Below are positions 2,302 through 58,440 of a stretch of DNA of 64,000 nt, piece by piece. Position numbers and translations under genes: made by a program. A model generated the notes under the pieces. It saw only the letters and a program-made list of their open reading frames with translations. It did no database searches and was not told where the DNA came from. This DNA is from Heptranchias perlo (lineage: Eukaryota): positions 36,022,001 to 36,086,000 of the forward strand of contig NC_090332.1 of NCBI RefSeq assembly GCF_035084215.1, in the 5' to 3' direction. Position 1 is the first letter of the stretch, and every line of letters starts with the position of its first letter.

Positions 2302-3700
2302 GGTGTGTTTTTTTACATTTTCTTTGAGAACTTTCATGTATTAGTTAAAAAATATTGGAGATGGGGAAAAAGCCTCTTTGACTGACAGTCAAAAATCATC
2401 CAATCGGGTAATGAAGAGTCTTTCCAATTGGCTGTGAGGATGGACAAGTCGGACGACTGATGAAACCGCCAGGAATACGTCCAACCATTGTTGGCAACCT
2501 TACTCCCGCCAAGCGTTAAAATCCAGGCTAAAATCCAGGATTAAGTCTTTGTTTTGAAAGTCAGCAGTCACACAGTACTGAAAGTTATTTTTTCACTAAC
2601 ATAAACCTCTATTTAGCACGGAAGATAATTACTCAAAGACAGCATTAACCTGGATTATAGGTCTGCACTCCTTTCTTCCTCTGTAGTCATTAAAATGTCA
2701 CACCTGTCTGAGATTCCTATAAACAGCACACATATAAAACAGACCCAGTTCTATCTTCAACACAGTTCTTTTTTAAAGTAAGCCAATTAAGTATTTTCTT
2801 CAAACAATAAGGTAGGCATCAAAAAATACATTGATTACCTAAGTACCAAGTAAAGAGGGGCCTACAGAGTCACTGTTTTCAACCATTGTTAAATTTGTTG
2901 AAAATGTATGTAAAATTTAAATAACTCCTAAAAAGATTTTTGTTTGTGAATTCCTTCACTTTGATGAACACTGACAACAGGGCCCCCCTATCAGAGACCT
3001 TATCATCATGTAAACTCAAATAAAATTTCAATCAGGTGAACTTATTGAAGTATATTATTTGTTGGTGAATTATTTGCCCCATACCTACAAACTATTACAA
3101 ATTTGACAGTCACAAAAACAAACATTATAGATGCACAGACAAAGATTTTGACCTTGTCAGTATCAGGGAGCATTTTCCCATTGAAGATCATGTTTAGGAC
3201 AAATGTTCAATTTTTTGTTATTGAGAAATCCAATTATTGTTTCTTTTAGATATGCTCTTTAATGTTACTTTTTGTTTTTAATACAGCTCTTTTAAATATC
3301 CCTCTAAGTCATTTGATAATGTCACTTAACATTGCCAATTCTGCCTTTCATAATAAATGAGTGTGCACATACCTAGTATGCCATCATTTTCCTATCATAC
3401 AAGTCTGAGGGAAATGTTTCCAGCATTCTCTAAATGAGCAATGTAATTAAATTCTCTACAAAACTGCAGCAGTTGGAAAAGTGAAAATAACAACAGCAAT
3501 CTGCTGTATTTCCTGGAATACTTATGTTCGAAGATAAATACTTGACAGTTCAGCTACACAATCAATTATTACTCTGCTTACAAGTGTAATATTTATAATA
3601 GTTTAAGTGGGATTTTAAAATTGCGATTTATTTACAGATTGTGACCTTGTAGATTCTAGTTTTTGTATCATTGTGTAACCATTTAGCCCATTGACTACAA

Positions 3701-3795
3701 TGGTAATTTCAACTTTCGGTGATGGTGTAAAACGGGCGATATCAGATCAGCTGCCCATTATTCACTAGGCCCAATTTCCTTTCCATTGAAGTCCC
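3701..3795 (+). mobile_element. Short (~100 bp) Harbinger-type mini-element or terminal fragment
   Basis: Shares TGTAAAAC...GCCC...TTTCCATTGA blocks with copies at about 15745-15839 (minus) and 32885-32985 (plus). Confidence 0.55.
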
Positions 3796-20535: not shown

Positions 20536-21691
20536 TTATTGATGTCGCTCATTAACGATCTGATCACATAGAGCCCTGGCCGAAAGGGCCTGTCTACGTT
20601 GTAGCCTCCCTTCCTCTTCCTCTTCCTTCACTTCCTCCTCCACTTCCTCCTCCTCCTCCTCTTGCTCGTGCTCCTCAGGTTCTCGCCTGATAGGCGGTGA
20701 CAAGGGCTGTTCCCTCATAATGGCCAGGTTGTGCAGTATGCGACATACTACCACAAATCTTGATATCCACTCAGCTGAATACTGCAGGACTCCTCCAGAG
20801 CGACCCAGGCAGTGGAAGCGTTGCTTGAGGATGCCGATTGTTTGCTCTATAATGTTACTTATGGCAGCATAGCTCTCATTGTAGGTCTGCTGTGTACATG
20901 GGTTCCTGACTGGAGTCATAAGCCATGTCATGAAGGGATAACCCTTGTCACCCAGTAGCCAGCCTTTGACTTGCCGCACTGGTTCAAATACAGGTGGAAT
21001 AGCGGACTGCCGCAGAATGAACGATTCATGACTGCTGCCAGGACAGCGGGCATTGACCTGCATGCGCTGCCTGGTGGTCACTCACCAGCTACACATTGAG
21101 GGAGTGGAATCCCTTTCTGTTGATGAATATGTCCGAGTTCAGATGTGGAGCTCGCAAGGCAATGTGCATTCAGTCAATGACACCCTGCACCGTGGGGAAG
21201 CCTGCAATCCATGCAAAACCTTGTGCTCGCTCTTCCTTCTTGTCTCTAGCAAAAGGGAATGGGATGAATGTATTTCTCATTGTATAGAGAGCCTCAGCGA
21301 CCTCCTTTATACAACAGTGCACTGCAAACTGCGAGATGTTGCTTATATCTCCAGCAGCAGCCTGAAAGGAGCCAGAGGCATAAAAACTAAGAGCAACGGT
21401 CACAGGCAATGCTGTCCTTGCTCTGTTTTGACGCTGTAGTTGTGGCTGCCGCAGTTGATAAATTTTAGTCACAACCTCTTTTGTGAACCAAAGATGTCTG
21501 ATTCACTGGTCATCGCTGAAGTTGAGGTAAGAGAATTGCTCCCTGAAGACCTTCCTTGCATATGGCCTCCTGCTGAGTGCCCTGCTCCTGCTCCTCCTCC
21601 CTCTTCTTGCATCTTGTCCTGCTCTGCATGGCCTCATTTCATTCTCCCAGTCATGTTCAATTCCCAGAGGAAGCTCTAACAGGCCACCCAT
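20536..21691 (-). pseudogene. Harbinger (HARBI1-family) DDE transposase, frameshifted
   Basis: ORF pieces contain ALSFYASGSFQ, GFPTVQGVID, PGSSHES, WLLGDKGYP, IEQTIGILKQRF, ILHNL and a poly-Glu tail. Confidence 0.92.
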
Positions 21692-34124: not shown

Positions 34125-35690
34125 GCATGATTTTTAGATGGAGCCAGGAAGAGCAGGAAGAGAGTGGGGGGGAGGGGGGGGGCGGAGGTGGGGGAGATTT
34201 TCGGGCTCAAAACCTGGAAGTAAAATTCACGGGTTGGAATGTGCAATCGCGACCTAATTGAATGATTACAATTTTACTTCCAGGTTTCCCGTGCGACGGA
34301 CAGCCAGATTGGCAGGCTGGGTGCCTGTCGGGTGGGAAAGCTAGCAACTGGGGAACGAATGCCAGGTAAGTCTGACATCGCGAGGCTGGGGGGCGGGGGT
34401 CGGTCAACGAATGGGGGTTCGGGCATCATGGAGGCTGGGGACATCGGGGGGCTGTGGACATCGGATGCTGGAGACATCGGAGGCTGTGGACATTGGAGGT
34501 TGTGGACATCGGAGGCTGTGGACATCGGAGGAGGGCAATGGACATCAGACGATGGAGACATCGGGGGAGGTGTGGACATCAGAGGCTGTGGACATCGGAG
34601 GAGGGCTGTAGACATTGGAGGCTGTAGACATTGGAGGCTGTGGACATTGGAGGCTGTGGTCATCGGGGGAGGGCTGTGGACATCGGACGCTGGAGACATC
34701 GGGGGGGAGTTGTGGACATCGGAGGCTGTGGACATTGGAGGAGGGCTGTGGACATCGGAGGCTGGAGACATTGGAGGAGGCATGTGGACGTCGGAGGCTG
34801 TGGACATCGGAGGAGGGTTGTGGACATCGGAGGCTGGAGACATTGGAGGAAGGTTGTGGACGTCGGAGGCTGTGGACATCGGAGGAGGGCTGTGGACATC
34901 GGAGGCTGGAGACATTGGAGGAAGGTTGTGGACGTCGGAGGCTGTGGACATCGGAGGAGGGTTGTGGACATCGGATGCTGGAGACATCGGGGGGGGGTTG
35001 TGGACATCGGATGCTGGAGACATCGGAGGCTGTGGTCATTGGAGGTTGTGGACATCGGAGGAGGGATGTAGACATCGGAGGCTGTGGACATTGGAGGAGG
35101 GCTGTAGACGTCGGAGGCTGTGGACATCGGAGGAGGGATGTGGACATCGGAGGCTGGAGACATCGGGGGGGGCTGTGGACATCGGAGGCTGTGGACATCG
35201 GAGGCTGGAGACATTGGAGGAGGGCTGTGGACATCGGAGGCTGGAGACATCGGGGGGGCTGTGGACATCGGAGGCTGTGGACATTGGAGGAGGGCTGTGG
35301 ACATCGGAGGCTGGAGACATCGGGGGGGCTGTGGACATCGGAGGCTGTGGACATCGGAGGCTGGAGACATTGGAGGAAGGCTTGAGACACCAGGAAGGTC
35401 AGAGACATCGGGAGGGTTGGAGACATCGCGGGGAGGGTTGGGCATCGGGGGGGGGGTCTAGGTCATCGGGACGGGTCTGACATCGGGGGGGAGGGGTGAC
35501 CGGCCGTTGGTGGGGGACCGATCACGGCAGGCAAGCTTGTTGGGCCCGAAGGAAATACTCCTGCTCCTCCTGGCCCACAAGCAGTGCAATAAAGGGACTT
35601 AACAAATGAACTGGCCCTTCTTGCCTCCTTTTACCTGGCGAGATTCATGAGCCCCAGGAAAGGTGTTCTGGAGGCGTTAAATTTAAATAG
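34125..35690 (+). mobile_element. Harbinger-type MITE with an expanded internal minisatellite
   Basis: Starts GGCATGATT like the 55870 element and shares CTCCTGCTCCTCCTGGCCCACAAGCAGTGCAATAAAGG with it; right end unclear. Confidence 0.7.
34430..35430 (+). repeat. G-rich minisatellite, core GGAGGCTGTGGACATC (16 bp) with 19-20 bp variants
   Basis: Dozens of copies of ggaggctg(t/g)(g/a)gacat(c/t) and ggaggagggctgtggacatc; gives repetitive ORFs in most frames. Confidence 0.95.
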
Positions 35691-43925: not shown

Positions 43926-45624
43926 AGGGCTCCAGATTGGAATAGAGCAGATTTTAAAATGATTGGTGTTAGTTAGCAGAGGTGAGGTAGAAAGAGAAAT
44001 AGGCACACAGGTCTGTAGATCAACAATGGAATAATTTTAAAAAGGAAATTGCAGAGTTGCAGAATAATTATATGCCTTTAAAAAAAGTCTACTTCAAGCT
44101 TCAGAAGGTCGTAGATAAATAAAGAGGTTAGAAACAAACCATAAGGAATATGGAGATTATAGGTATGATAAAAGCAAGAGAAAATATGATAAAATAAAAT
44201 AAAAGATTAACATAAGAACATAAGAAATAGGAGCAGGAGTAGGCCATACGGCCCCTCGAGCCTGCTCCACCATTCAATCAGATCATGGCTGATCTTCGAC
44301 CTCAACTCCACTTTCCTGCCCAATCTCCATATCCCTTGATTTTCCTAGAGTCCAAAAATCTATCTAGCTCTGTCTTGAACATATTCAACTACTCAGCATC
44401 CACAGCCCTCTGGGGTAGAGAAATCCAAAGATTCACAACCCTGTGTGTGAAGAAATTCCTCCTCATCTCAGTCTTGAATGGCCGACCCCTTATCCTGCAA
44501 CTATGCCCCCTAGTTCTAGACTCTCTAGCCAAGGGAAACAATCTTTCAGCATCTGCTCTGTCAAGCCCCGTCATAATCTTATACGTTTCAATGAGATCAC
44601 CTCTCATTCTTCTAAACTCCAGAGAGTATAGGACCATTCAACTCAATCTCTTTGCATCGGACAACCCTCTCATCCCAGGAATTAATTTAGTGAACATACA
44701 TTACACCGCCTCTAAGGCAAGTATATCCTTCCTTAGATAAGGAGACCAAAACTGTGCTCAGTAATCCAGGTGAGGTCTCAGTAAGCCCTGTACAACTGCA
44801 GTAAGACTTCCCTACTCTTGTACTCCAACCTCCTTGCAATAAAGGCCAACATGCCATTTGCTTTCCTAATTGCTTGCTGTACCTGCATACTAACTTTTTG
44901 TGTTTCTTGTACGAGGACACCCAAGTCTCTCTGAACACCAACATTTAATAGTTGCTCACCATTCAATAAATATTCTGTTTTTCTATTCTTCCTACTAAAG
45001 TGAATAACCTCACATTTCCCCACATTATACTCCATCTGCCACCTTCTTGCCCACTATCTTAATCTGTCGATATACCTTTGCAGACTCTTTGGGGCCGATT
45101 TTCGGATGAAGGAGCGGGTGTGTTGTGGGGGGGGTGTCCGAAAATCGCTGAAATCCCGAGCAGGTTTGGAGCCCGGCTCCAACCCGCTGACTTCCAGGTT
45201 CCCCAGTGAAGCGTCCAGGTGCGCACGCACACCTCCCGGATGCGGAAGTCCCACCGGCAATTAAAGCCGGCAGGATGATAATTTGCACAGTTTGTCCAAT
45301 AGTTAAAGTACTTCAACTACTTGATTGACTCGACATTTTGGCAGGGATGAGATATTGAAGAATCCTCAGCGTGTTTCTCGTGCTTTGGGAAACACTCCCT
45401 GTTGCAACAGACGTGTTTCAGCCAGCAGCCAGTGGGAGATGCTAATGCTTATTTGACAGGTGGGGAGAAAACGTCATTTATTGCAGCGGGGCACTCTGTC
45501 ACTTCAGACAAAGTTTTGGCTGCAAGACCTTTGTGTTTTTACTCAAATTTCTCACTTTCCACCCAAAACTCTGCTGTTCAAACATATTTAAATACTTTGC
45601 GGACCCCCTCAACCTCACACCGTC

Positions 45625-46835
45625 ATGGCTGCATTCACCACTACATCTGAGGACGAGCAATATCACCAGCCTCGCCAGGCACGGCGTCCACCTCCGCCAC
45701 GTGGAGCTCCACACCCAGTGCTGCGCCACAGGCACCTGCACAAGAGCACCGAGGGCAACAACAGAGAGAGCGACGTCGCAGGAGGCAGTACTCTCGCAAC
45801 AGGGTCTACAGACCGAGGCTCAGCTTCCTGGACCTCTCTGAGGAGCAGTGCATATACGGAGGCGCAGAGTCAGTCGCCAGGCAAGGCGTCCACCTCCGCC
45901 ACGTGGAGCTCCACACCCAGTGCTGCGCCACAGGCACCTGCACAAGAGCACCGAGGGCAACAACAGAGAGAGCGACGTCGCAGGAGGCAGTACTCTCGCA
46001 ACAGGGTCTACAGACCGAGGCTCAGCTTCCTGGACCTCTCTGAGGAGCAGTGCAAACGGAGGCGCAGAGTCAGTCGCCAGCTAGTTGCAGACATTTGCAG
46101 CCTCCTTCATGCCGAGCTGGTCCCGGCTGGGCCGAGCAGCATCTCCTTACCTGTTGCTGTCAAAGTCACCACTGCCCTCAACTTCTTCACCTCTGGATCA
46201 TTCCAGGGTGCCACCGAGGACATTGCCGTGGTCTCTCAGTCGTCTGCACACAAGTACATAAGGCAGGTCACTGACAGCTTGTTTTGCAGGGTTTAGCACT
46301 ACGTCAACTTACTCATGGATGACCTCAGCCAGACAGAGAGGGCTGTGGCTGGCTTCCCACGGGTCCAGTGTGTAATCGATTGCACCCATATAGCAATGCG
46401 AGCACCTCCACACCAGCCAGGACTGTTTGTCAACAAGAAGGGCTATCACTCCATCAACACTCAGCTCGTTTGTGACCACCGCAAGAGATTCCTTCATGTG
46501 TGTGCCAGATACCCTGGCAGCTGCCACGATTCCTTCATCTTCTGGAATTCCAACATCCCGCCTCTCTTCCATGTACCGAACACCAGTAAGGGCTGGCTCC
46601 TCGGGGACAAGGGATACCCTCTGCACACGTGGCTCATGACACCTCTGAGGAACCCCATCACTGAGCAACAGCGTCGCTATAACAGAGTGGGATGCATTAT
46701 AGTTGTCTGTTGTGCCCTGCATAACACGGCACAACAGAGAGGGGTGATGCTTGAGGACACCCCATCCACATCTGCCGCCCACATTGAGGAGGAGGTGGAG
46801 GAGGAGGAGCAACCCATGGGCAGAACAGTGGCTCA
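45625..46835 (+). pseudogene. Harbinger DDE transposase with an internal duplication and deletions
   Basis: KVTTALNFFTSGSFQ, GFPRVQCVIDCTH, YPGSCHDS, WLLGDKGYP, VCCALHN; the segment carrying the catalytic Glu is missing (YN|RVGCII). Confidence 0.9.
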
Positions 46836-48587
46836 CCGTGAGGGCTCCTCCAAAGACTCCTCCACCTGCACCAGTGCAGGGGCAGACTCAGCCACCTGGA
46901 GAGCAGGTAGCATTGCGAGTACTGGTTGAGAGGGGGGCAACCGGTGAGACATGGGAGCGCTTTGACTGGCGTCCCCACTTCCATGTCCCCTTTCACCATC
47001 ATCTCTCCCCTGGGCCAGGCCCACATCACTCCTACACGCTGATGGGCGACAGTTTGGAGGACATGGGTGATCCTTTTAAGGCCCGTGCTAGTGTATCTGC
47101 CTGCCTGTTTATGGCGGCAGAATGTTGTTTACCCTGAGGCTGAACGGCTGTTGTCAGGGCCTGAATTTTCTCATTTGTGAGCCACGCTTGAAGCTCCACG
47201 GAGGCTAGCATTCCCTCCATCGCAGACATTCCCGCACTTACCCGCGACAGTATGTCAGAGATGCCCTCACATCTCTGTGACACTATCTGAGAGATGCCCT
47301 CACGTCCCAGTGACAGTATCTCAGAGATGCCCTCCCTTACCTGTGCCACCATTCCACTCATGCAGGAGTTGGACTCCTCCATCCTCTGCGCTATTGTGGA
47401 GAGTGCACGTGGCACCTGTTCCAGCACCTCGCAAATGTGCTGCTGCCCCTCGATCATTCTCCTTTTAAATGATTGCTCCCAGGGTTCAGCATCTGTGTCC
47501 AGCTGAGCAGAGCCTGGACAGGAATGCTCCCACTGACGCGGACTCTCCACAGCTGCCCCTGCCACCAGTGTCTGCTCGTGCTCACATGTATGTGGTAACT
47601 CACCATGTGTGACCCCAACTAACTGCGGACTATCTGCGCTGGTGGATGGCTCGCTCAGATGTGACAGTGCACCCTCAGAGGCCAGCAGATCCTCTGAGGA
47701 ATTGCCCTCTGCCGTCACAGCGGTCGCTGAAGGCCCTGTAGGAGAACAGAAGGCAATATTCAGATGTGTCATGTTGCGATGAGCATACTGAGGTGCTGAA
47801 GATGGCAAGGCATGTTAACATCAATTCATATTGTGTGTGATGAATGTTAAAGTTCTGTCACCAGACGTTTGTCGGGTGCTCCGACGGACAGGCACTCAAG
47901 GGTGCGGCTCAGCTCCAGCGCCTCTTGCTCCGCGTCTGTGAGGACGACAATCTGTAGCGGCCCCCCTCAGAACCTTGCCCTCTCCCGTGCATTGTAGGCT
48001 CTCTGCTCCTATAAGTGGAGAAAGCACAGACGAGTGAGTGAGTGATGGTGACGTGGCCAACCACTGAGTGCATTGGGCTTGGATGCGGCTGACTGTGAAA
48101 GAGATGCATCAGAGGGTGAGTATGAGACAGAGCTATGAGATTGTATGAGGATTGGGTTGAGTGGTAGTGGTGGGTTGAGTAATGGGGAGGTGAGGAAGTG
48201 CTGAGGAAGTGCAGGCAAGTTGAGGATGAGCTTTAAGTGGGTGTGAGGACTGATGTGATAGAGTAGTGTTGGCATTGCAGAATGAGCTGGGGGTGGGGGT
48301 GGTGATGTGGAAGACGGAATATAGGAGAATGAGTAAGTGTACTCACTTTGGCTGACCTAGTTAGGTCATTGAAGCGCTTCCTGCACTGGATCCAGGTGCG
48401 GGAGATGTTGCTGCTGCTAGTGACCTCCTCTACCACCTCGAGCCAGGCCTTCTTGGTGGCAGAGTCAGGCCACTTCCTCCCATCCACCGAGTAGAAGACA
48501 TCCCTCCTCCTCCTCACCCCATCCAGTAACACCTGGAGTGAGGCATCGCAAAATCTAGGAGCAGTCTTTCCCCTGTGCTGCTCCATT
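46836..48587 (-). pseudogene. Harbinger Myb/SANT-like gene, spliced
   Basis: [21 protein letters not shown]...AWLEV...RTWIQCRKRFNDLTRSAK|gtgagt in exon 1; later exons at about 48008-47870 and 47736-46840. Confidence 0.85.
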
Positions 48588-50879
48588 GTGCTGTGTGGGT
48601 GTTTGCTCCAGGAACAGCCATTGGAGGACTGGCCCTTTACATAGAGCTCCTCCAGCTGACAGCCTGTGATGCACGTGCGCAGTCCGCCCGCTGCACAGCT
48701 TTCGGACGGCAAACCCGGAAGTTAAGTGGCTCCAATTGACCCGCGATTGCGTGGGAAATGGACAGATTTTATTTGGCGGGTCACCCACGCACCCATTCGC
48801 ACCTTCCCCCCACCCCCCGCTGCCATCCCACCTACCCGTTAATATCAAGGCCTTTTTGTCCTCCTCACAGCTTACTTTCCCACCTAGCTTTGTATCATCA
48901 GCAAACTTGGATACATTACTCTCGGTCCCTTCATCTAAGTCATTAATATAGATTGTAAATAGCTGAGGCCCAAGCACCGATCCTTGTGGCACCCCATTAG
49001 TTACAGCCTGCCAACCTGAAAATGGCCCATTTATCCCTACTCTCTGTTTTCTTTCTGTTAGCCAATCCTATATCCCTGCTAACATATTATCCCCAACGCC
49101 ACGAGCCCTTACCTTGTGTAACAGCCTTTTATGCGGCACCTTATCGAATGCCTTTTGAAAACCAAAAAAACTACATCCACTGGTTCCCCATTATTCACCC
49201 TGCTAGTTACATCCTCAAAAAACTCTAATAAATTTGTTGAACACGATTTCCCTTTCATAAAAACATGTTGACTCTGCCTAATCATATTATGATTTTCTAA
49301 GTGCCCTTTTACACTTCCTTAATAATGGATTCCAGCATCTTCCCAATGACTGATGTCAGGCTAACTGGCCAATAGTTCCCTGCTTTCTCTCCCTCCTTTT
49401 TTAAATAGCGGGGTAACATTTGCTACTTTCCAATCCACTGGGACCGTTCCAGAATCTAGAGAATTTTGGAAGATCATAACCAATGCATCCACTATCTCTG
49501 CAGCTGCCTCTTTTAGAACCCTAGGATGTAAGCCATCAGGTCCAGAGGATTTGGCGGCTTTTAGTCCCATTAGTTTGTCCAGTACTTTTTCTCTACTGAT
49601 ATTAATTGTTTTAAGTTCCTCACTCGCATTTACCCCTTGGTTCCCCACTATTTTTGGCATGCTTTTTGTACCTTCTACTGTGAAGACAGATACAAAATAT
49701 TTGTTTAATGCTCCTGCCATTTCCTGATTCCCCATTATAATATTTCCTGTCTCAGCCTCTCAGGGACCAATGTTTACTTTTGTTACTCTCTTCCTTTTTA
49801 CATACTTGTAGAAGCTCTTTTAATTCATTTTTATATTTCTTGCTAGTTTACTTTCATATTCTATTTTCTCCCTTTTTATCAATTTTTTAGTCGTTCTTTG
49901 TTGGTTTCTAAAACTCTCCCAATCCCTTGGCTTATTACTCTTCTTGGCAACATTATAGGCCTTTTCTTTCAATCTAATACTCTCCTTAACTTCTTTAGTT
50001 AGCCACAGGTGGATCATTTTTCCCGTGGAGTTTTCATTTCTCAATGGAATGTATATTTGTTGAGAGTATTGAAATATTTCTTTAAATGTTTGCCATTGCT
50101 TTTCAACTGTCAAACCCTTTAATTTAATTTCCCAATCTACCTTTGACAACTCATCCCTCATACCTATGTAAATGGCTTAATTTAAGTTTAAGACTCTAGT
50201 TTCTGACTTAAGTACGTTACTTTCAAACTCAATGCGAAATTCTATTATATTATGATCACTCTTCTCCAGAGGATCTTTTACTGTGAGATTACTAATTAAC
50301 CCTATCTCATTACATAATATACAAGATCTAAAATAGCCTGTTCCTTGTTTGGTTCCATGACTTATTACTCTAGGAAACCATCTTGAATACATTCCATGAA
50401 CTCGTCCTCCAAACTACCTTTGCCAATTTGATTTGCCCAGTCTATATGCAGATTAAAGTCCCCCATTGTGACTGCATTTCCTTTGTTACACGCTCCTATT
50501 ATTTCATGATTAATACTCTGTCCAATGGTATTGCGACCATTTGGGGGCATATAAACTACTCCCTCCAGTGTTTTCTTCCCCTTGTTATTTCTAATTTCCA
50601 CCCATATTGATTCTACTTCCTGATCTTCCGAGTCAAGATCGTTTCTCACCACTGTCCTTATGTCATCCTTTATTATTAAGGCTACACCCCCTCCTTTTCT
50701 ATTCTGCCTGTCTTTTCTAAATGTCATGTACCCTCGAATATTTAGTTCCCAACCTTGGTCATTTTGGATCCATGTCTCTGTAATGGCTATCAGGCCAAAT
50801 CCATTTATCTCTATTTTTTTTTTTTATTCGTTCACGGGATGTGGGCGTCGCTGGCAAGGCCGGCATTTATTGCCCATCC

Positions 50880-53177
50880 CTAATTGCCCTCGAGAAGGTG
50901 GTGGTGAGCCGCCTTCTTGAACCGCTGCAGTCCGTGTGGTGACGGTTCTCCCACAGTGCTGTTAGGAAGGGAGTTCCATGATTTTGACCCAGCGACAATG
51001 AAGGAACGGCGATATATTTCCAAGTCGGGATGGTGTGTGACTTGGAGGGGAACGTGCAGGTGGTGTTGTTCCCATGCGCCTGCTGCCCTTGTCCTTCTAG
51101 GTGGTAGAGGTCGCGGGTTTGGGAGGTGCTGTCGAAGAAGCCTTGGCGAGTTGCTGCAGTGCATCCTGTGGATGGTGCACACTGCAGCCACAGTGCGCCA
51201 GTGGTGAAGGGAGTGAATGTTTAGGGTGGTGGATGGGGTGCCAATCAAGCGGGCTGCTTTATCTTGGATGGTGTCGAGCTTCTTGAGTGTTGTTGGAGCT
51301 GCACTCATCCAGGCAAGTGGAGAGTATTCCATCACACTCCTGACTTGTGCCTTGTAGATGGTGGAAAGGCTTTGGGGAGTCAGGAGGTGAGTCACTCGCC
51401 GCAGAATACCCAGCCTCTGACCTGCTCTTGTAGCCACAGTATTTATGTGGCTGGTCCAGTTAAGTTTCTGGTCAATGGTGACCCCCAGCATGTTGATGGT
51501 GGGGGATTCGGCGATGGTAATGCCGTTGAATGTCAAGGGGAGGTGGTTAGACTCTCTCTTGTTGGAGATGGTCATTGCCTGGCACTTATCTGGCGCGAAT
51601 GTTACTTGCCACTTATGAGCCCAAGCCTGGATGTTGTCCAGGTCTTGCTGCATGCAGGCTCGGACTGCTTCATTATATGAGGGGTTGCAAATGGAACTGA
51701 ACACTGTGCAGTCATCAGCGAACATTCCCATTTCTGACCTTATGATGGAGTGAAGGTCATTGATGAAGCAGCTGAAGATGGTTGGGCCTAGGACACTGCC
51801 CTGAGGAACTTCTGCAGCAATGCCCTGGGGCTGAGATGATTGGCCTCCAACAACCACTACCATCTTCCTTTGTGCTAGGTATGACTCCAGCCACTGGAGA
51901 GTTTTCCCCCTGATTTCCATGGACTTCAATTTTACTAGGGCTCCTTGGTGCCACACTCGGTCAAATGCTGCCTTGATGTCAAGGGCAGTCACTCTCACCT
52001 CACCTCTGGAATTCAGCTCTTTTGTCCATGTTTGGACCAAGGCTGTAATGAGGTCTGGAGCCGAGTGGTCCTGGCGGAACCCAAACTGAGCATCGGTGAG
52101 CAGGTTATTGGTAAGTAAGTGCCGCTTGATAGCACTGTCGACGACACCTTCCATCACTTTGCTGATGATTGAGAGTAGACTGATGGGGCGGTAATTGGCC
52201 GGATTGGATTTGTCCTGCTTTTTGTGGACAGGACATACCTGGGCAATTTTCCACATTGTCGGGTGGATGCCAGTGTTGTAGCTGTACTGGAACAGCTTGG
52301 CTAGAGGCGCAGCTAGTTCTGGAGCACAAGACTTCAGCACTACAGCTGGGATGTTGTCGGGGCCCATAGCCTTTGCTGTATCCAGTGCACTCAGCCGTTT
52401 CTTGATATCACATGGAGTGAATCGAATTGGCCGAAGACTGGCTTCCGTGATGGTGGGGATATTGGGAGGAGGCTGAGATGGATTATCCACTCGGCACTTC
52501 TGGCTGAAGATGGTTGCAAACGCTTCAGCCTTGTCTTTTGCACTCACGTGCTGGACTCCGCCATCATTGAGAATGGGGATGTTTGCAGAGCCTCCTCCTC
52601 CCGTTAGTTGTTTAATTGTCCACCACCATTCACGACTGGATGTGGCAGGACTGCAGAGCTTTGATCTGATCCGTTGGTTGTGGAATCGCTTTGCTCTATC
52701 TATAGCATGTTGCTTCCGCTGTTTAGCATGCATGTAGTCCTGAGTTGTAGCTTCACCAGGTTGGCACCTCATTTTTCGGTACGCCTGGTGCTGCTCCTGG
52801 CATGCTCTTCTGCACTCCTCATTGAACCAGGGTTGATCCCCTGGCTTGTTGGTAATGGTAGAGTGAGGAATATGCCAGACCATGAGGTTACAGATTGTGC
52901 TGGAATACAATTCTGCTGCTGCTGATGGCCCACAGCGCCTCATGGATGCCCAGTTTTGAGCTGCTAGATCCATTCTGAATCTATCCCATTTAGCACGGTG
53001 GTAGTGCCACACACCACGTTGGATGGTGTCCTCAGTGCGAAGACGGGATTTCATCTCCACGAGGACTGTGCGGTGGTCACTCCTACCAATACTGTCATGG
53101 ACAGATGCATTTGCGACAGGTAGATTGGTGAGGACGAGGTCAAGTAAGTTTTTCCCTCGTGTTGGTTCCCTCACCAC
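50880..53177 (-). CDS. Reverse transcriptase ORF (EN C-terminus, RT, C-terminal domain), 765 codons without a stop
   Basis: [57 protein letters not shown]. Confidence 0.92.
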   Translation of the reverse strand: MVREPTRGKNLLDLVLTNLPVANASVHDSIGRSDHRTVLVEMKSRLRTEDTIQRGVWHYHRAKWDRFRMDLAAQNWASMRRCGPSAAAELYSSTICNLMVWHIPHSTITNKPGDQPWFNEECRRACQEQHQAYRKMRCQPGEATTQDYMHAKQRKQHAIDRAKRFHNQRIRSKLCSPATSSREWWWTIKQLTGGGGSANIPILNDGGVQHVSAKDKAEAFATIFSQKCRVDNPSQPPPNIPTITEASLRPIRFTPCDIKKRLSALDTAKAMGPDNIPAVVLKSCAPELAAPLAKLFQYSYNTGIHPTMWKIAQVCPVHKKQDKSNPANYRPISLLSIISKVMEGVVDSAIKRHLLTNNLLTDAQFGFRQDHSAPDLITALVQTWTKELNSRGEVRVTALDIKAAFDRVWHQGALVKLKSMEIRGKTLQWLESYLAQRKMVVVVGGQSSQPQGIAAEVPQGSVLGPTIFSCFINDLHSIIRSEMGMFADDCTVFSSICNPSYNEAVRACMQQDLDNIQAWAHKWQVTFAPDKCQAMTISNKRESNHLPLTFNGITIAESPTINMLGVTIDQKLNWTSHINTVATRAGQRLGILRRVTHLLTPQSLSTIYKAQVRSVMEYSPLAWMSAAPTTLKKLDTIQDKAARLIGTPSTTLNIHSLHHWRTVAAVCTIHRMHCSNSPRLLRQHLPNPRPLPPRRTRAAGAWEQHHLHVPLQVTHHPDLEIYRRSFIVAGSKSWNSLPNSTVGEPSPHGLQRFKKAAHHHLLEGN

Positions 53178-53763
53178 CTGCCGCAGGCTCGTTCAGTAGT
53201 GGTGCTACCGAGCCACTCTTGGTGATGGACATTGAAGTCCCCCACCCAGAGTACATTTTGTGCCCTTGCTACCCTCAGTGCTTCCTCCAAGTGGTGCTCA
53301 ACATGGAGGAGGACTGATTCATCAGCTGAGGGAGGACGGTAGGTGGTAATCAGCAGGAGGTTTCCTTGCCCATGTTTGACCTGATGCCATGAGATTTCAT
53401 GGGGTCCAGAGTCAATGTTGAGGACTCCCAGGGCCACTCCCTCCTGACTGTATATCACTGTACCGCCACCTCTGGTGGGTCTGTCCTGCCGGTGAGACAG
53501 GACATACCCAGGGATGGTGATGGAAGAGTCTGGGACGTTGGCTGAAAGATATGATTCTGTGAGTATGGCTATGTCAGGCTGTTGCTTGACTCGTCTGTGG
53601 GACAGCTCTCCCAATTTTGGCACAAGTCCCCAGATGTTAGTAAGGAGGACCTTGCAGGGTCGACTGGGCTTGGTGTTTTGCCGTTGTCGTGTCTGGTGCC
53701 TAGTGGTCCGATGCCGGGTGGTCCGTCCGGTTTTATTCTTATTATGACTTTTCGTAGCGAGAT
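53171..53763 (-). CDS. APE-type endonuclease N-terminal part of the same ORF, separated by one frameshifting lesion near 53187
   Basis: TNIWG, LTES, RQDRPTRGGG, YRPP, GDFNVHH. The frame is open from a TAA at about 53766 and contains no ATG. Confidence 0.85.
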
Positions 53764-54019
53764 TTTACAACTGAGTGGCTTGCTCGGCCATTTCAGAGGG
53801 CAATTAAGAATCAACCACATTGCTGTGGGTCTGGAGTCACATATAGGCCAGACCGGGTAAGGGCGGCAGGCTTCCTTCCCTAAAGGACATTAGTGAACCA
53901 GATGGGTTTTTACGACAATCCGGTAGTTTCATGGCCATCATTACTGATACTAGTATTTTAATTCCAGATTTTATTTTTATTAATTGAATTTAATTAATTA
54001 ATTGAATTTAAATTCGCCA

Positions 54020-54113
54020 GCTGCCGTGGCGGGATTTGAACTCATGACTCTGGATTTTAGTCCAGGCCTCTGGATTACTAGCCCAGTAACATAACCACTA
54101 TGCTACCGTACCC
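54020..54113 (-). promoter_or_regulatory. tRNA-Thr(AGT)-like head with a Pol III type 2 internal promoter
   Basis: A box TAGCATAGTGG (54105-54095), anticodon arm CTGGG-CTAGTAA-TCCAG, second arm CTGGA-CTAAAA-TCCAG, B box GAGTTCAAATCC (54043-54032). Confidence 0.85.
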
Positions 54114-55629: not shown

Positions 55630-55869
55630 CTGTATAATAGCCTAGTGGTTCTGGTACTGGACCAATAATCCATAGGTCATGAATTCAAATCCTACAATAG
55701 CAAGTTGTGAAATTGAATTTAATAAATCGGGTAATTTGTGGGCTAGCACCAGAAAATGACCATTTGTTGGATTGTCATAAAAACTTAATAGGCTCATTAA
55801 TGTTCTTTAGGGAAGGGGACACACCTCCCCTACCTAGTCTGGCCTATATCTGACTCCAATCCCACACTA
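55630..55869 (+). mobile_element. SINE-like copy of the tRNA head and 5' UTR of the 50817-54113 element
   Basis: tagcctagtgg (A box), gaattcaaatcc (B box), ggattgtcataaaaac...ctttagggaagg...tctggcctatatctgactcca, colinear with the reverse complement of 54105-53825; cut by a MITE. Confidence 0.8.
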
Positions 55870-56859
55870 GGGCATGATTCCCACTCGGAGCCGGGAACCC
55901 AGCGCGTGAGCAGATGTTCACATGGGGGACCCGGAAATCAAGTGAGTGCGTCACAATCTGCGATCACAACTCAATTGGAGGTAATTATTTATGTTTCTGG
56001 GTCTCAGAGACTTCAGAGGAGGGGGGGTCGGAAACATCGGGAGGGGAGGGGTCGGAGACATCGCGGAAGAGGGGGGTCGGAGACATCGCGGAGGAAGGGG
56101 CTTCAGTGACATCACGGTGGAGAGGGGTCGGAGACAATGCGGGGGGGGGGGGGGTTCGGAGAAATCGTGGAGGAGGGGAGGTCGGAGAAATTGCGGAGGA
56201 GGGGGGTTCGGTGACATCACAGAGAGGAGAAGGGTCGGAGACATTGCGGAGAGGAGAAAGGTCGGAGACATCGCGGGGGGGGGGGGGGGGGGGTCGGAGC
56301 CATTGTGGAGCAGGGGGGCTCGGTGACATCGAAGGAGAGGGGTTGGAGACATCAGAGGAGAGGGGTCAGTGACATCACAAGAGGGGGGTCGTCTGTGGGG
56401 GTGGTCTACCATGGGGGGTCTCAGCCATCGGTGGAGGGGTCTACCATCGGAGGGGGGAGGGGTTGGCTGATCGCCCCAGGTGAGTTTGTTGGGCCTGGAT
56501 GAAGCACTCTTGCTCCTTCTGGCCCACAAGCAGTGCAATAAAGGCACTCACCTCATGGACCAGCCCTTCTCGCCTCCTCTCGCCTGGCAAGAATCGGAAG
56601 CGATGGGAAATCTGTGCAGATAAGGTTAAATACGTTTTACATTTATAATCCACAAAAAATTAAGTGCCTCAACTATCGCAATGAGATACATTGCCCCTTT
56701 AACAATCCGCCCTCCGGCATTAAGCAGGGATGGGAATTCCGGGTTTTGGATTTCGCAAACATAGAAGTTGGAGCCAGGTTGCAGTCCCACTTTAAAGGTC
56801 TGTTAGTTTTACCTCCCACTCGCCCCAACCCACACATTTTTTGGGGTTAAAATTACCCC
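55870..56859 (+). mobile_element. Harbinger-type MITE with a G-rich ggagacatcg repeat array
   Basis: CTA|GGGCATGATT...AATTACCCC|CTA target duplication; shared conserved block with 34125. Confidence 0.8.
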
Positions 56860-57295
56860 CTATGTGCTTGATTTATGAGAGGGTTGGGGGGGCGTTAAAT
56901 TGGCAAAAATCTGAAACCCGACCCCAACCCACCGTGAACGCGCCTACTTCCCGTTTAACCACGGCGGGTTTGGAGGCGTTCGAGTAACCCGCACTGGAGA
57001 GGCGGCAAAGTGATTAGAATATTTAAATGAGGCTCCTTTCATGAGATTTTAGCAGTGATTTGAAATCAACGCCTCCTGCTAGGGTTTTCCGGGGTTCGGG
57101 AAACTCAGCAGTAAAACAGAGGCGAAATTGAATTTCACTTCATGGGGTTGGTTAAAGGTCAGGTGTCTTGATATGAATAAAGGATCAGTGCTCTCAGCTA
57201 CGTTCTCGGTTCCCTCTGGGGAACGGTTGGTGACAGTACTTGTTGTGAGAGACTTATTTGTACAGTTTGGAGGTGTTCACACAGAGAACCTCAGG

Positions 57296-58440
57296 ATGGG
57301 TAGCACCATGGCTGCTTTAGATTGGATTTCGGACAAGGAAGACAATCAGCATCATCACCAGAAAGGACGTATTGTGGAGGGAGCTGCAGGTGGACAACAG
57401 AGAGGGGAGCAATATAGGGGTCGAGTTCGCAGGAGGCACTACCCAGGTAACAGGGTCTATAGACAGAGGCTGAGCTTCCTTGACCTCTCGGAGGAGCAGT
57501 GCTTCCGAAGGCTGAGATTGTCACATCAGGTGGCCGCAGACATCTGCAGCATCCAAAAGACCTGCTGCCTGCTGGACCTGGTGGCCACGCATTACCAGTG
57601 GCTGTGAAAGTCACCACTGCCCTCAATTTGTTTGCCTCTGGTTCCTTCCAGGGCACTACCAGAGGCATATCGAGGGTCTCTCAGTTGCCTGCACATAAAT
57701 GCATACGGCAAGTGACAGATGGATTGTTTGCCAAGGCTGGGAATTATGTAAACTTCCCCTGTGATGACAATAGCCAGAATGAGGGGAACTCGGATTCGCG
57801 TCTCTGGCTGGCTTCCCACAGGTACAGGATGCCATCAACTGCACACATGTGGCAATCTGAACACTGCCAGATCAACCAGGAGCATTCGTTAACCACAAGG
57901 GATTTCATTCCATCAATGTTCAGCTGATCTGCAACCACAAGGAAAGGTTCATGCAGATCTGTGCTAGATTCCCTGGGAGCTGCCATGAAGCTCTCGTACT
58001 GCAGCAGTCCAACATCCCCGACCTGTTCGTACCTGGAACCATCCTTAAGGGGTGGCTGCTAGGTGACTAAGGATACCTCCTTCAAACTCGGTTGATGACA
58101 CCTCTGAGGAACCCCACCAATGAACCCCAAGAGCGCTACCATGCGAGCCATATGACAATTTGATCTGTCATTGAGCAAGCCATCAGCATGCTCAAGATGC
58201 ACTTCAGGTGCCTGGACAAGTCTGGAGGTGCCCTTCAGTACTCACCAGCGAGGGTCTCTAGCGCAGCAGTGAGGACTAGAGGTGGAGGAGGAACAAATCG
58301 CTCACCACGCTTCATCTAAATGAGGATACCAATGGAGGTGGAGGACAAGGAGGAGGAAGATGACGATGGAGCCCCCAAAGCCAGACCAGTGGATCACATT
58401 GCTGCTCTGGGATGCCCTAATAGCTCAAAGGTTCAATTAG
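57296..58440 (+). pseudogene. Harbinger DDE transposase, multiple frameshifts and stops
   Basis: RVYRQRLSFLDLSEEQC, KVTTALNLFASGSFQ, FPGSCHE, GWLLGD*GY, IEQAISMLKMHFRCLD. Confidence 0.88.

Follow-up and report, generated by a model that had tools for sequence, protein, structure and literature searches.

Viral cyclisation sequences are short complementary 5′ and 3′ segments that can close an RNA. The CYC5 and CYC3 segments of Ty1 are a comparable pair, able to close the RNA of a retroelement (PMC3592414). Long interspersed nuclear elements (LINEs) of the RTE, Ingi, Vingi and R2 groups have bipartite non-autonomous LINEs and short interspersed nuclear elements (SINEs) that retain 5′ and 3′ parts and have lost the open reading frame (ORF); a template jump is one mechanism offered for them (PMC5786205, PMC3414825). 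The lepidopteran LINE Zenon has a single ORF, a length of about 3.3 kb (3,064-3,741 in table 1 of the source) and poly(A), and 5′+3′ derivatives (Persaeus) were born from it repeatedly and independently. Their junctions are attributed to a 5-bp direct repeat, and the terms “secondary structure” and “stem” are not matched in the text of that article (PMC6740152). Here, we examine a 64,000-nt stretch of the genome of the shark Heptranchias perlo (GCF_035084215.1, contig NC_090332.1, positions 36,022,001 to 36,086,000 of the forward strand; hereafter the window), which carries a full-length Zenon-like LINE. The 5′ untranslated region (UTR) of this LINE is complementary to its last codons, and its SINE derivatives are joined beside the two complementary segments. 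In window positions, the parts concerned are as follows:

50812..54113, minus strand: full-length copy of a 3.33-kb single-ORF non-LTR (lacking long terminal repeats) retrotransposon, Zenon-like, one of a family in the 3.25-Gb genome
53796..53811, minus strand: arm 1, the 5′ UTR strand of the 16-bp helix
50876..50891, minus strand: arm 2 of the 16-bp helix, comprising the last codons, the UAG stop and the base of the tail hairpin
50836..50880, minus strand: 3′ tail stem-loop, the presumed recognition signal for reverse transcriptase (RT)
about 50825-50815, minus strand: poly(A) after the tail stem-loop

An earlier note on this DNA, made from the letters alone, had described 16 contiguous pairs (14 Watson-Crick and two G-U) between sense-strand 53811-53796 and 50891-50876. 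We find exactly this helix, with a predicted energy of -22.8 kcal/mol in isolation. In the window copy, the UAG stop of the RT frame lies inside the 3′ arm, and this arm does overlap the tail hairpin (50880-50836), which competes for the outer five pairs. The form of the helix that can coexist with the hairpin comprises the inner 11 bp and an imperfect extension of 7 bp. Complementarity of the 5′ and 3′ segments is beyond chance. The helix is the longest with at most two G-U pairs in the 3.3-kb element (runner-up, 12 bp), and when the 465-nt 5′ end was dinucleotide-shuffled 1000 times and set against the last 150 nt, no shuffle reached 16 bp (maximum 14); one in 60 whole-element shuffles did.

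The helix belongs to the family and not to one copy. We aligned 35 full-length copies (the window copy and 34 near-full-length others at 91-98% identity) and number the element from window 54112 on the family majority sequence, where arm 1 is 302-317 and arm 2 is 3259-3274. Arm 1 is kept in 33 of the 35 copies and pairs 1-15 in 30; at pair 16, 22 copies have C-G and 13 have the mismatch C.A. The 33-mer across arm 1 has 7,560 exact matches in the genome, a floor for the number of head-bearing copies. No arm change occurs among the 40 differences listed for contigs of four sequencing runs from other organisms.

Natural deletions in the family are concentrated at the two arms. Our junction map covers the source-genome loci collected in this study, a set enriched for heads. 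It holds 71 joins that skip more than 300 nt, 65 of them more than 1 kb. In 64 of these 65 the left break is at or before 377 and the right break at or after 3175, which joins the 5′ part to the last ~160 nt; 59 have a left break at 300-385 with a right break at 3150-3300. Five break slightly further left (three being alignment ends of old copies that retain arm 1), and one is ORF-internal. A uniform null for this placement gives 0.0027 per event; the null for retaining arm 1, given a surviving product of at most 560 nt, is 0.2 per event. Eight distinct young junctions start 1-60 nt past arm 1 and resume between 84 nt before and 8 nt inside arm 2; microhomology at them measures 0-4 nt. In old-lineage copies the junctions differ between copies nearly every time. 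We also took a sample of 30 young copies in genome order, chosen only by the 30-mer of the transfer RNA (tRNA)-like head and seen over their first 1.55 kb. Five are head+tail joins (three junctions), and this sample holds no other deletion above 1 kb. Furthermore, 10 of the 15 joints listed for the contigs from other organisms skip 2,812-2,983 nt between the same regions.

The same fusion is present in an older SINE family, which we found from one copy in the window:

55630..55880, plus strand: copy of an old head+tail SINE family, interrupted ahead of the arms; arm 1 is fused to arm 2 in its relatives

A first look gave 5,853 candidates for this high-copy family. Its parts are, in order, a head of the same kind, arm 1 joined straight to arm 2, and the tail. 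The fused arms are predicted to form one hairpin joined at the apex (core hairpin P about 0.85), and the 11-bp core has a predicted P of 0.8-1.0 in three naturally occurring head+tail copies. The suggestion in the earlier note that related SINEs join both segments into one hairpin is thus borne out by the old family, and the large deletions in the source genome lie at the arms' inner edge. Two copies (L153 and L178) have an old-SINE-type head that continues into the LINE 5′ UTR, which indicates that the LINE preceded the old SINE.

The pairing also has an age pattern. Median identity to the class's own majority ranks the fused-arm SINE (0.876), old lineage (0.893), mixed young (0.952) and perfect young (0.971) copies, classes that were sampled differently from one another. 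The old lineage is mismatched at pairs 2, 8, 9 and 16, three of these being C.A. In the young lineage pairs 2, 8 and 9 are U-A or A-U, and both G-U pairs are unchanged. Gain of pairs toward the young lineage is the direction that selection on the RNA would give.

The LINE itself carries sequence marks of RNA polymerase III (Pol III) transcription, and its coding frame lacks an early start codon:

54032..54113, minus strand: tRNA-like head, with A box 54105-54095 and B box 54041-54032 (tRNA model 18.7 bits, below threshold)
50880..53764, minus strand: frame for an APE endonuclease and RT; first Met at codon 250; frameshifted in the window copy by a 37-nt deletion at 53188

ARAGORN reports no tRNA in the window or in 27 relative loci. 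The A-B box spacing is stretched by a ~19-nt duplication that the old SINE lacks. The element has a fixed 5′ start, seen in the aligned copies and in loose contig ends at 54113. Its sense strand contains no TTTT (4.3 expected; P 0.015, base shuffle; P 0.08-0.09 under stricter synonymous-codon or Markov nulls), while each of 26 invertebrate relatives has 7-38 such runs. Phe codons are 16 TTC to 3 TTT, and no AUG precedes codon 250 in the main ORF. The whole LINE thus looks adapted to Pol III, judging from its boxes, the missing TTTT, the Phe bias and the late AUG.

Given the complementarity, its age pattern, the junction map and these Pol III marks, we are inclined to think that the two arms do physically pair while reverse transcription proceeds, and that this pairing steers the template jumps that make SINEs. 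The RNA of a Pol III-type LINE would close into a loop through stacking of the inner 11 bp and its short extension on the hairpin of the 3′ tail, and the closed loop would hold the 5′ UTR beside the start point of target-primed reverse transcription. An RT pausing in, or just past, the G-C-rich stem could then jump, at 0-4 nt of microhomology, to the adjacent strand and leave the ORF uncopied. The resulting copies, with Pol III head and tail both retained, would be ready-made SINEs, and such jumps would have been repeated many times. We infer that the duplex forms in the ribonucleoprotein particle and that the jumps occur during reverse transcription. Weak selection would keep the pairing in the LINE, for example for a compact particle or for full-length copying.

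A less probable account, which we take seriously, is that the complementarity is incidental, by chance or as a relic. SINE survival would then need the entire conserved 5′ module, whose end near arm 1 would have other causes, the tail and a short length, supplied by microhomology joins as proposed for Persaeus and Zenon. Several observations weigh against steering by the helix, and those on covariation, folding, net binding and conservation also favor the incidental account. The expected covariation of the two segments is missing: 90 copies show one two-sided change, at one pair, and every change between lineages is one-sided, among lineages only about 10-20% apart. In the full-length partition function the 16-bp helix reaches 0.8% (P=0.008), and the net binding of the two whole ends (-13.6) is not clearly above that of internal windows (P 0.07-0.13). 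The arms are conserved no more than the rest of element region 200-340. A C.A mismatch at pair 10 is carried by 10 of 69 young copies, a spreading sub-lineage, and by 12 of the first 100 matches to the arm-1 33-mer, and three young copies (L231, L237 and L250) carry an arm-2 mismatch. The gain of pairs may itself be ascertainment, since attention fell on the helix through its perfect form in the young family. Junctions that recur represent amplified SINE masters, which means that copies do not equal events. A SINE without the arm-2 core has 199 exact copies, which does not support a need for the pairing in SINE-derivative mobility.

Small deletions with microhomology, made by the RT, are also numerous everywhere (51 gaps of at least 8 nt in the 35 aligned copies), which suggests an enzyme prone to slippage; the 37-nt deletion at 53188 that breaks the window copy's frame has 2 nt of microhomology. 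Bipartite derivatives are, moreover, common in RTE, Ingi, Vingi, R2 and Zenon as these are described (PMC5786205, PMC6740152). Against the incidental account, arm 1 ends just where two independent junctions lie, the helix is longer than expected by chance, pairs have been gained over time and not lost, and the junctions have no long direct repeat (0-4 nt).

Two observations on the cores of the arms belong here. The core 7-mer of arm 2 occurs a second time in the tail, 16 nt downstream (window 50891-50866, minus strand), and arm 1 could use this copy in the SINE subfamily without arm 2. Loss of the arm-1 core affects 102 copies on three backgrounds, the two copies compared having no diagnostic changes in common, which points to slippage and not to an arm-less master.

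A different function, which we consider doubtful, is that of a regulatory switch in an uncapped, AUG-less RNA. Arm 1 and a second 5′ segment would compete for arm 2 and toggle the RNA between folds competent for translation and for reverse transcription. The segments concerned are:

53874..53898, minus strand: second 5′ segment (“body”), which can pair with arm 2 and both tail-hairpin flanks as a three-way junction and rivals arm 1 (P 0.95-0.99 in the full-length fold)
53771..53796, minus strand: local hairpin of the 5′ UTR, immediately within the loop, whose 5′ strand can alternatively extend the long-range helix
53735..53741, minus strand: 7-nt segment that pairs with outer arm 1 as a local alternative (P about 0.6-0.7 in the full-length fold)
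53837..53932, minus strand: 31-codon upstream ORF (uORF) lying in the conserved 5′ body; its frame is open in the young and the old lineage and broken in the fused-arm SINE

The body segment is element 215-239, and its 26-mer has 7,349 exact genome matches. The two 5′ partners are nearly isoenergetic for one 3′ strand in both lineages. Binding to the folded tail, whose stem has P 0.96-0.99 in the full-length fold, is -17.8 and -16.8 kcal/mol in the young lineage and -12.4 and -14.3 kcal/mol in the old. The energy gap between the arm-1 and body helices, about 3 kcal/mol, is within the error of the full-length fold. At most 2 of 200 shuffles match either segment's binding, and arm 1 against the folded tail beats shuffles in both lineages (0/200 and 1/200), for segments picked post hoc. 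In the arm-1 state as in the body state, the RNA would be closed at the same 3′ strand, the choice between them lying beyond the folding model.

The switch would gain from the local anti-arm segment and from the body's overlap with the conserved uORF, since translation of the uORF would open the body helix. It would also meet a need: the A and B boxes, the lack of TTTT and the first Met at codon 250 call for initiation independent of cap and AUG, and the uORF could feed AUG-less reinitiation on the main ORF. The old SINE has several changes that are synonymous in the uORF frame. Against the switch, neither helix shows covariation, folds of long RNAs are unreliable, and in part of the old lineage arm 2 is shorter by 1 nt, which leaves the stop outside the arm. 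The last point also counts against a role for the helix in general and leaves a special part for the UAG unsupported, as these older copies read on to a later UAA. Of the earlier note's proposal of an uncapped, circularising RNA, the uncapped premise agrees with the A and B boxes and the lack of TTTT. Circularisation finds no backing from covariation, and the suggested aid to ribosome recycling is unsupported.

Inverted repeats can promote DNA deletions. That the pair of arms prompted deletions in the DNA of inserted copies is nevertheless very improbable, as the arms are 16 bp long, 2.9 kb apart and still have two uncorrected G-T pairs, as they are retained while the loop alone is lost, and as the same junctions recur at unlinked loci.

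Returning to the jump model, the pairing would work like a cyclisation element, its complementarity exceeding chance without the compensatory changes that would be expected of one. Ty1 differs in being an LTR element that requires strand transfer, and in a pairing proven by mutants and probing (PMC3592414), whereas the shark pairing is known from sequence and folding. In the sections considered here of the RTE, Ingi, Vingi and R2 accounts, addition of the tRNA head comes afterwards, the parent LINE is regarded as a Pol II unit and no end-to-end helix is proposed (PMC5786205, PMC3414825). Persaeus lacks a Pol III promoter, unlike the shark LINE, which itself carries the tRNA boxes (PMC6740152). 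By eye, the 3′ part of Persaeus begins at the same last ORF codons as arm 2 (figure S3 and dataset S1 of PMC6740152). In the Zenon of Papilio and Heliconius, also by eye, 6 nt before the Persaeus 5′ breakpoint are complementary to that place, a lead only, as the 5′ UTRs are unalignable. MetaSINE and UCON3 SINEs also have a tRNA head followed by a conserved central body. The shark body is unlike either domain when compared by eye, without alignment, with the supplements of PMC4824008 and PMC7245038, and we rejected it as a Meta-domain or UCON3; four body and tail words had no match in the hagfish supplement of the latter. We found no end-to-end helix in a non-LTR retrotransposon in the open-access literature, Repbase and subscription papers lying outside the search, and a literature text search by sequence words returned only unrelated primer matches.

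The LINE encodes its APE endonuclease and RT in one frame (973 codons from stop to stop in intact copies). A single ORF, a length of ~3.3 kb and a poly(A) end agree with CR1-Zenon. The nearest named proteins are from the lepidopteran Loxostege (35-37%) and the amphioxus Branchiostoma (39%), and the C terminus resembles Zenon-1_Hmel by eye. These features fit a Zenon-like LINE, an assignment made by features and nearest proteins and not by tree. Fragments of the element occur in proteins of Heptranchias, Heterodontus and Chiloscyllium, which points to sharks, and the family itself is probably catalogued in Repbase. The window copy has no clear target-site duplication. It is harbored by a decayed CR1-type LINE (window 54200-48850, minus strand), with an APE start and RT remnants on both sides. 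A separate subfamily beginning at element base 512 was a search artefact, and searches of the source genome for a more divergent family, with an old copy and a distant protein, gave the same lineage only.

The pairing was expected to be kept in related families. It is present in the family majority, while older lineages have mismatches and the 26 invertebrate relatives (26-42% protein identity) share no common 5′-3′ helix, a further point against the jump model. Individual 5′/3′ helices in these relatives (7 of 26 at p<0.05, crude block shuffle, one too-short locus excluded) were rejected, as their positions and sequences are not common and many are coding or low-complexity. The closest full-length relative (L071, 42%) has a different 5′ end, an ATG ahead of APE, TTTT runs and a (TAA)n tail; its 13-bp G-U-rich helix joins the 5′ end to the start of the 3′ UTR (440-735 and 3553-3722; p 0.13). 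The body motif is absent from the prokaryotic and viral collections searched, and no relatives of the element were found in viral contigs; seven viral matches to the Zenon tail motif were discarded, none having an RT. Many animal LINE contigs (L376-L455) lie inside bacterial and archaeal metagenome-assembled genomes, of symbionts of clams, sponges and others, as host contamination. Several of these contigs have a GDxxxNPGP motif upstream of APE, which we take to be 2A-like.

Elsewhere in the window, ORF remnants at 20536-21081, 45592-47814 and 57083-57607 are presumably Harbinger-type transposases and Myb/SANT partners, going by their motifs. G+C-rich tandem arrays at 34430-35470 and 56016-56457 (16/36-nt and 26-nt units) have a similar core.

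Why some LINE clades keep yielding 5′+3′ derivatives is posed as an open question (PMC5786205), and the Zenon study, in its account of the junctions, pointed to microhomology only (PMC6740152). At its most far-reaching, and in a form that we think unlikely, the shark LINE would be a Pol III coding LINE that circularises its uncapped RNA through two mutually exclusive 5′-3′ helices clamped on the RT-binding hairpin. This switch would couple AUG-less translation, via the uORF, to reverse transcription, and the jumps would make it a standing SINE factory. Such a clamp may also go back to the ancestor of Zenon-type LINEs and would then account for Persaeus. A concrete RNA helix at the edges of dozens of natural junctions makes the question of 5′+3′ derivatives experimentally addressable. 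Should the LINE itself benefit from the pairing, the helix would be a cis element linking the two ends of a non-LTR retrotransposon, in a Pol III-type coding LINE that seems unusual in any case.

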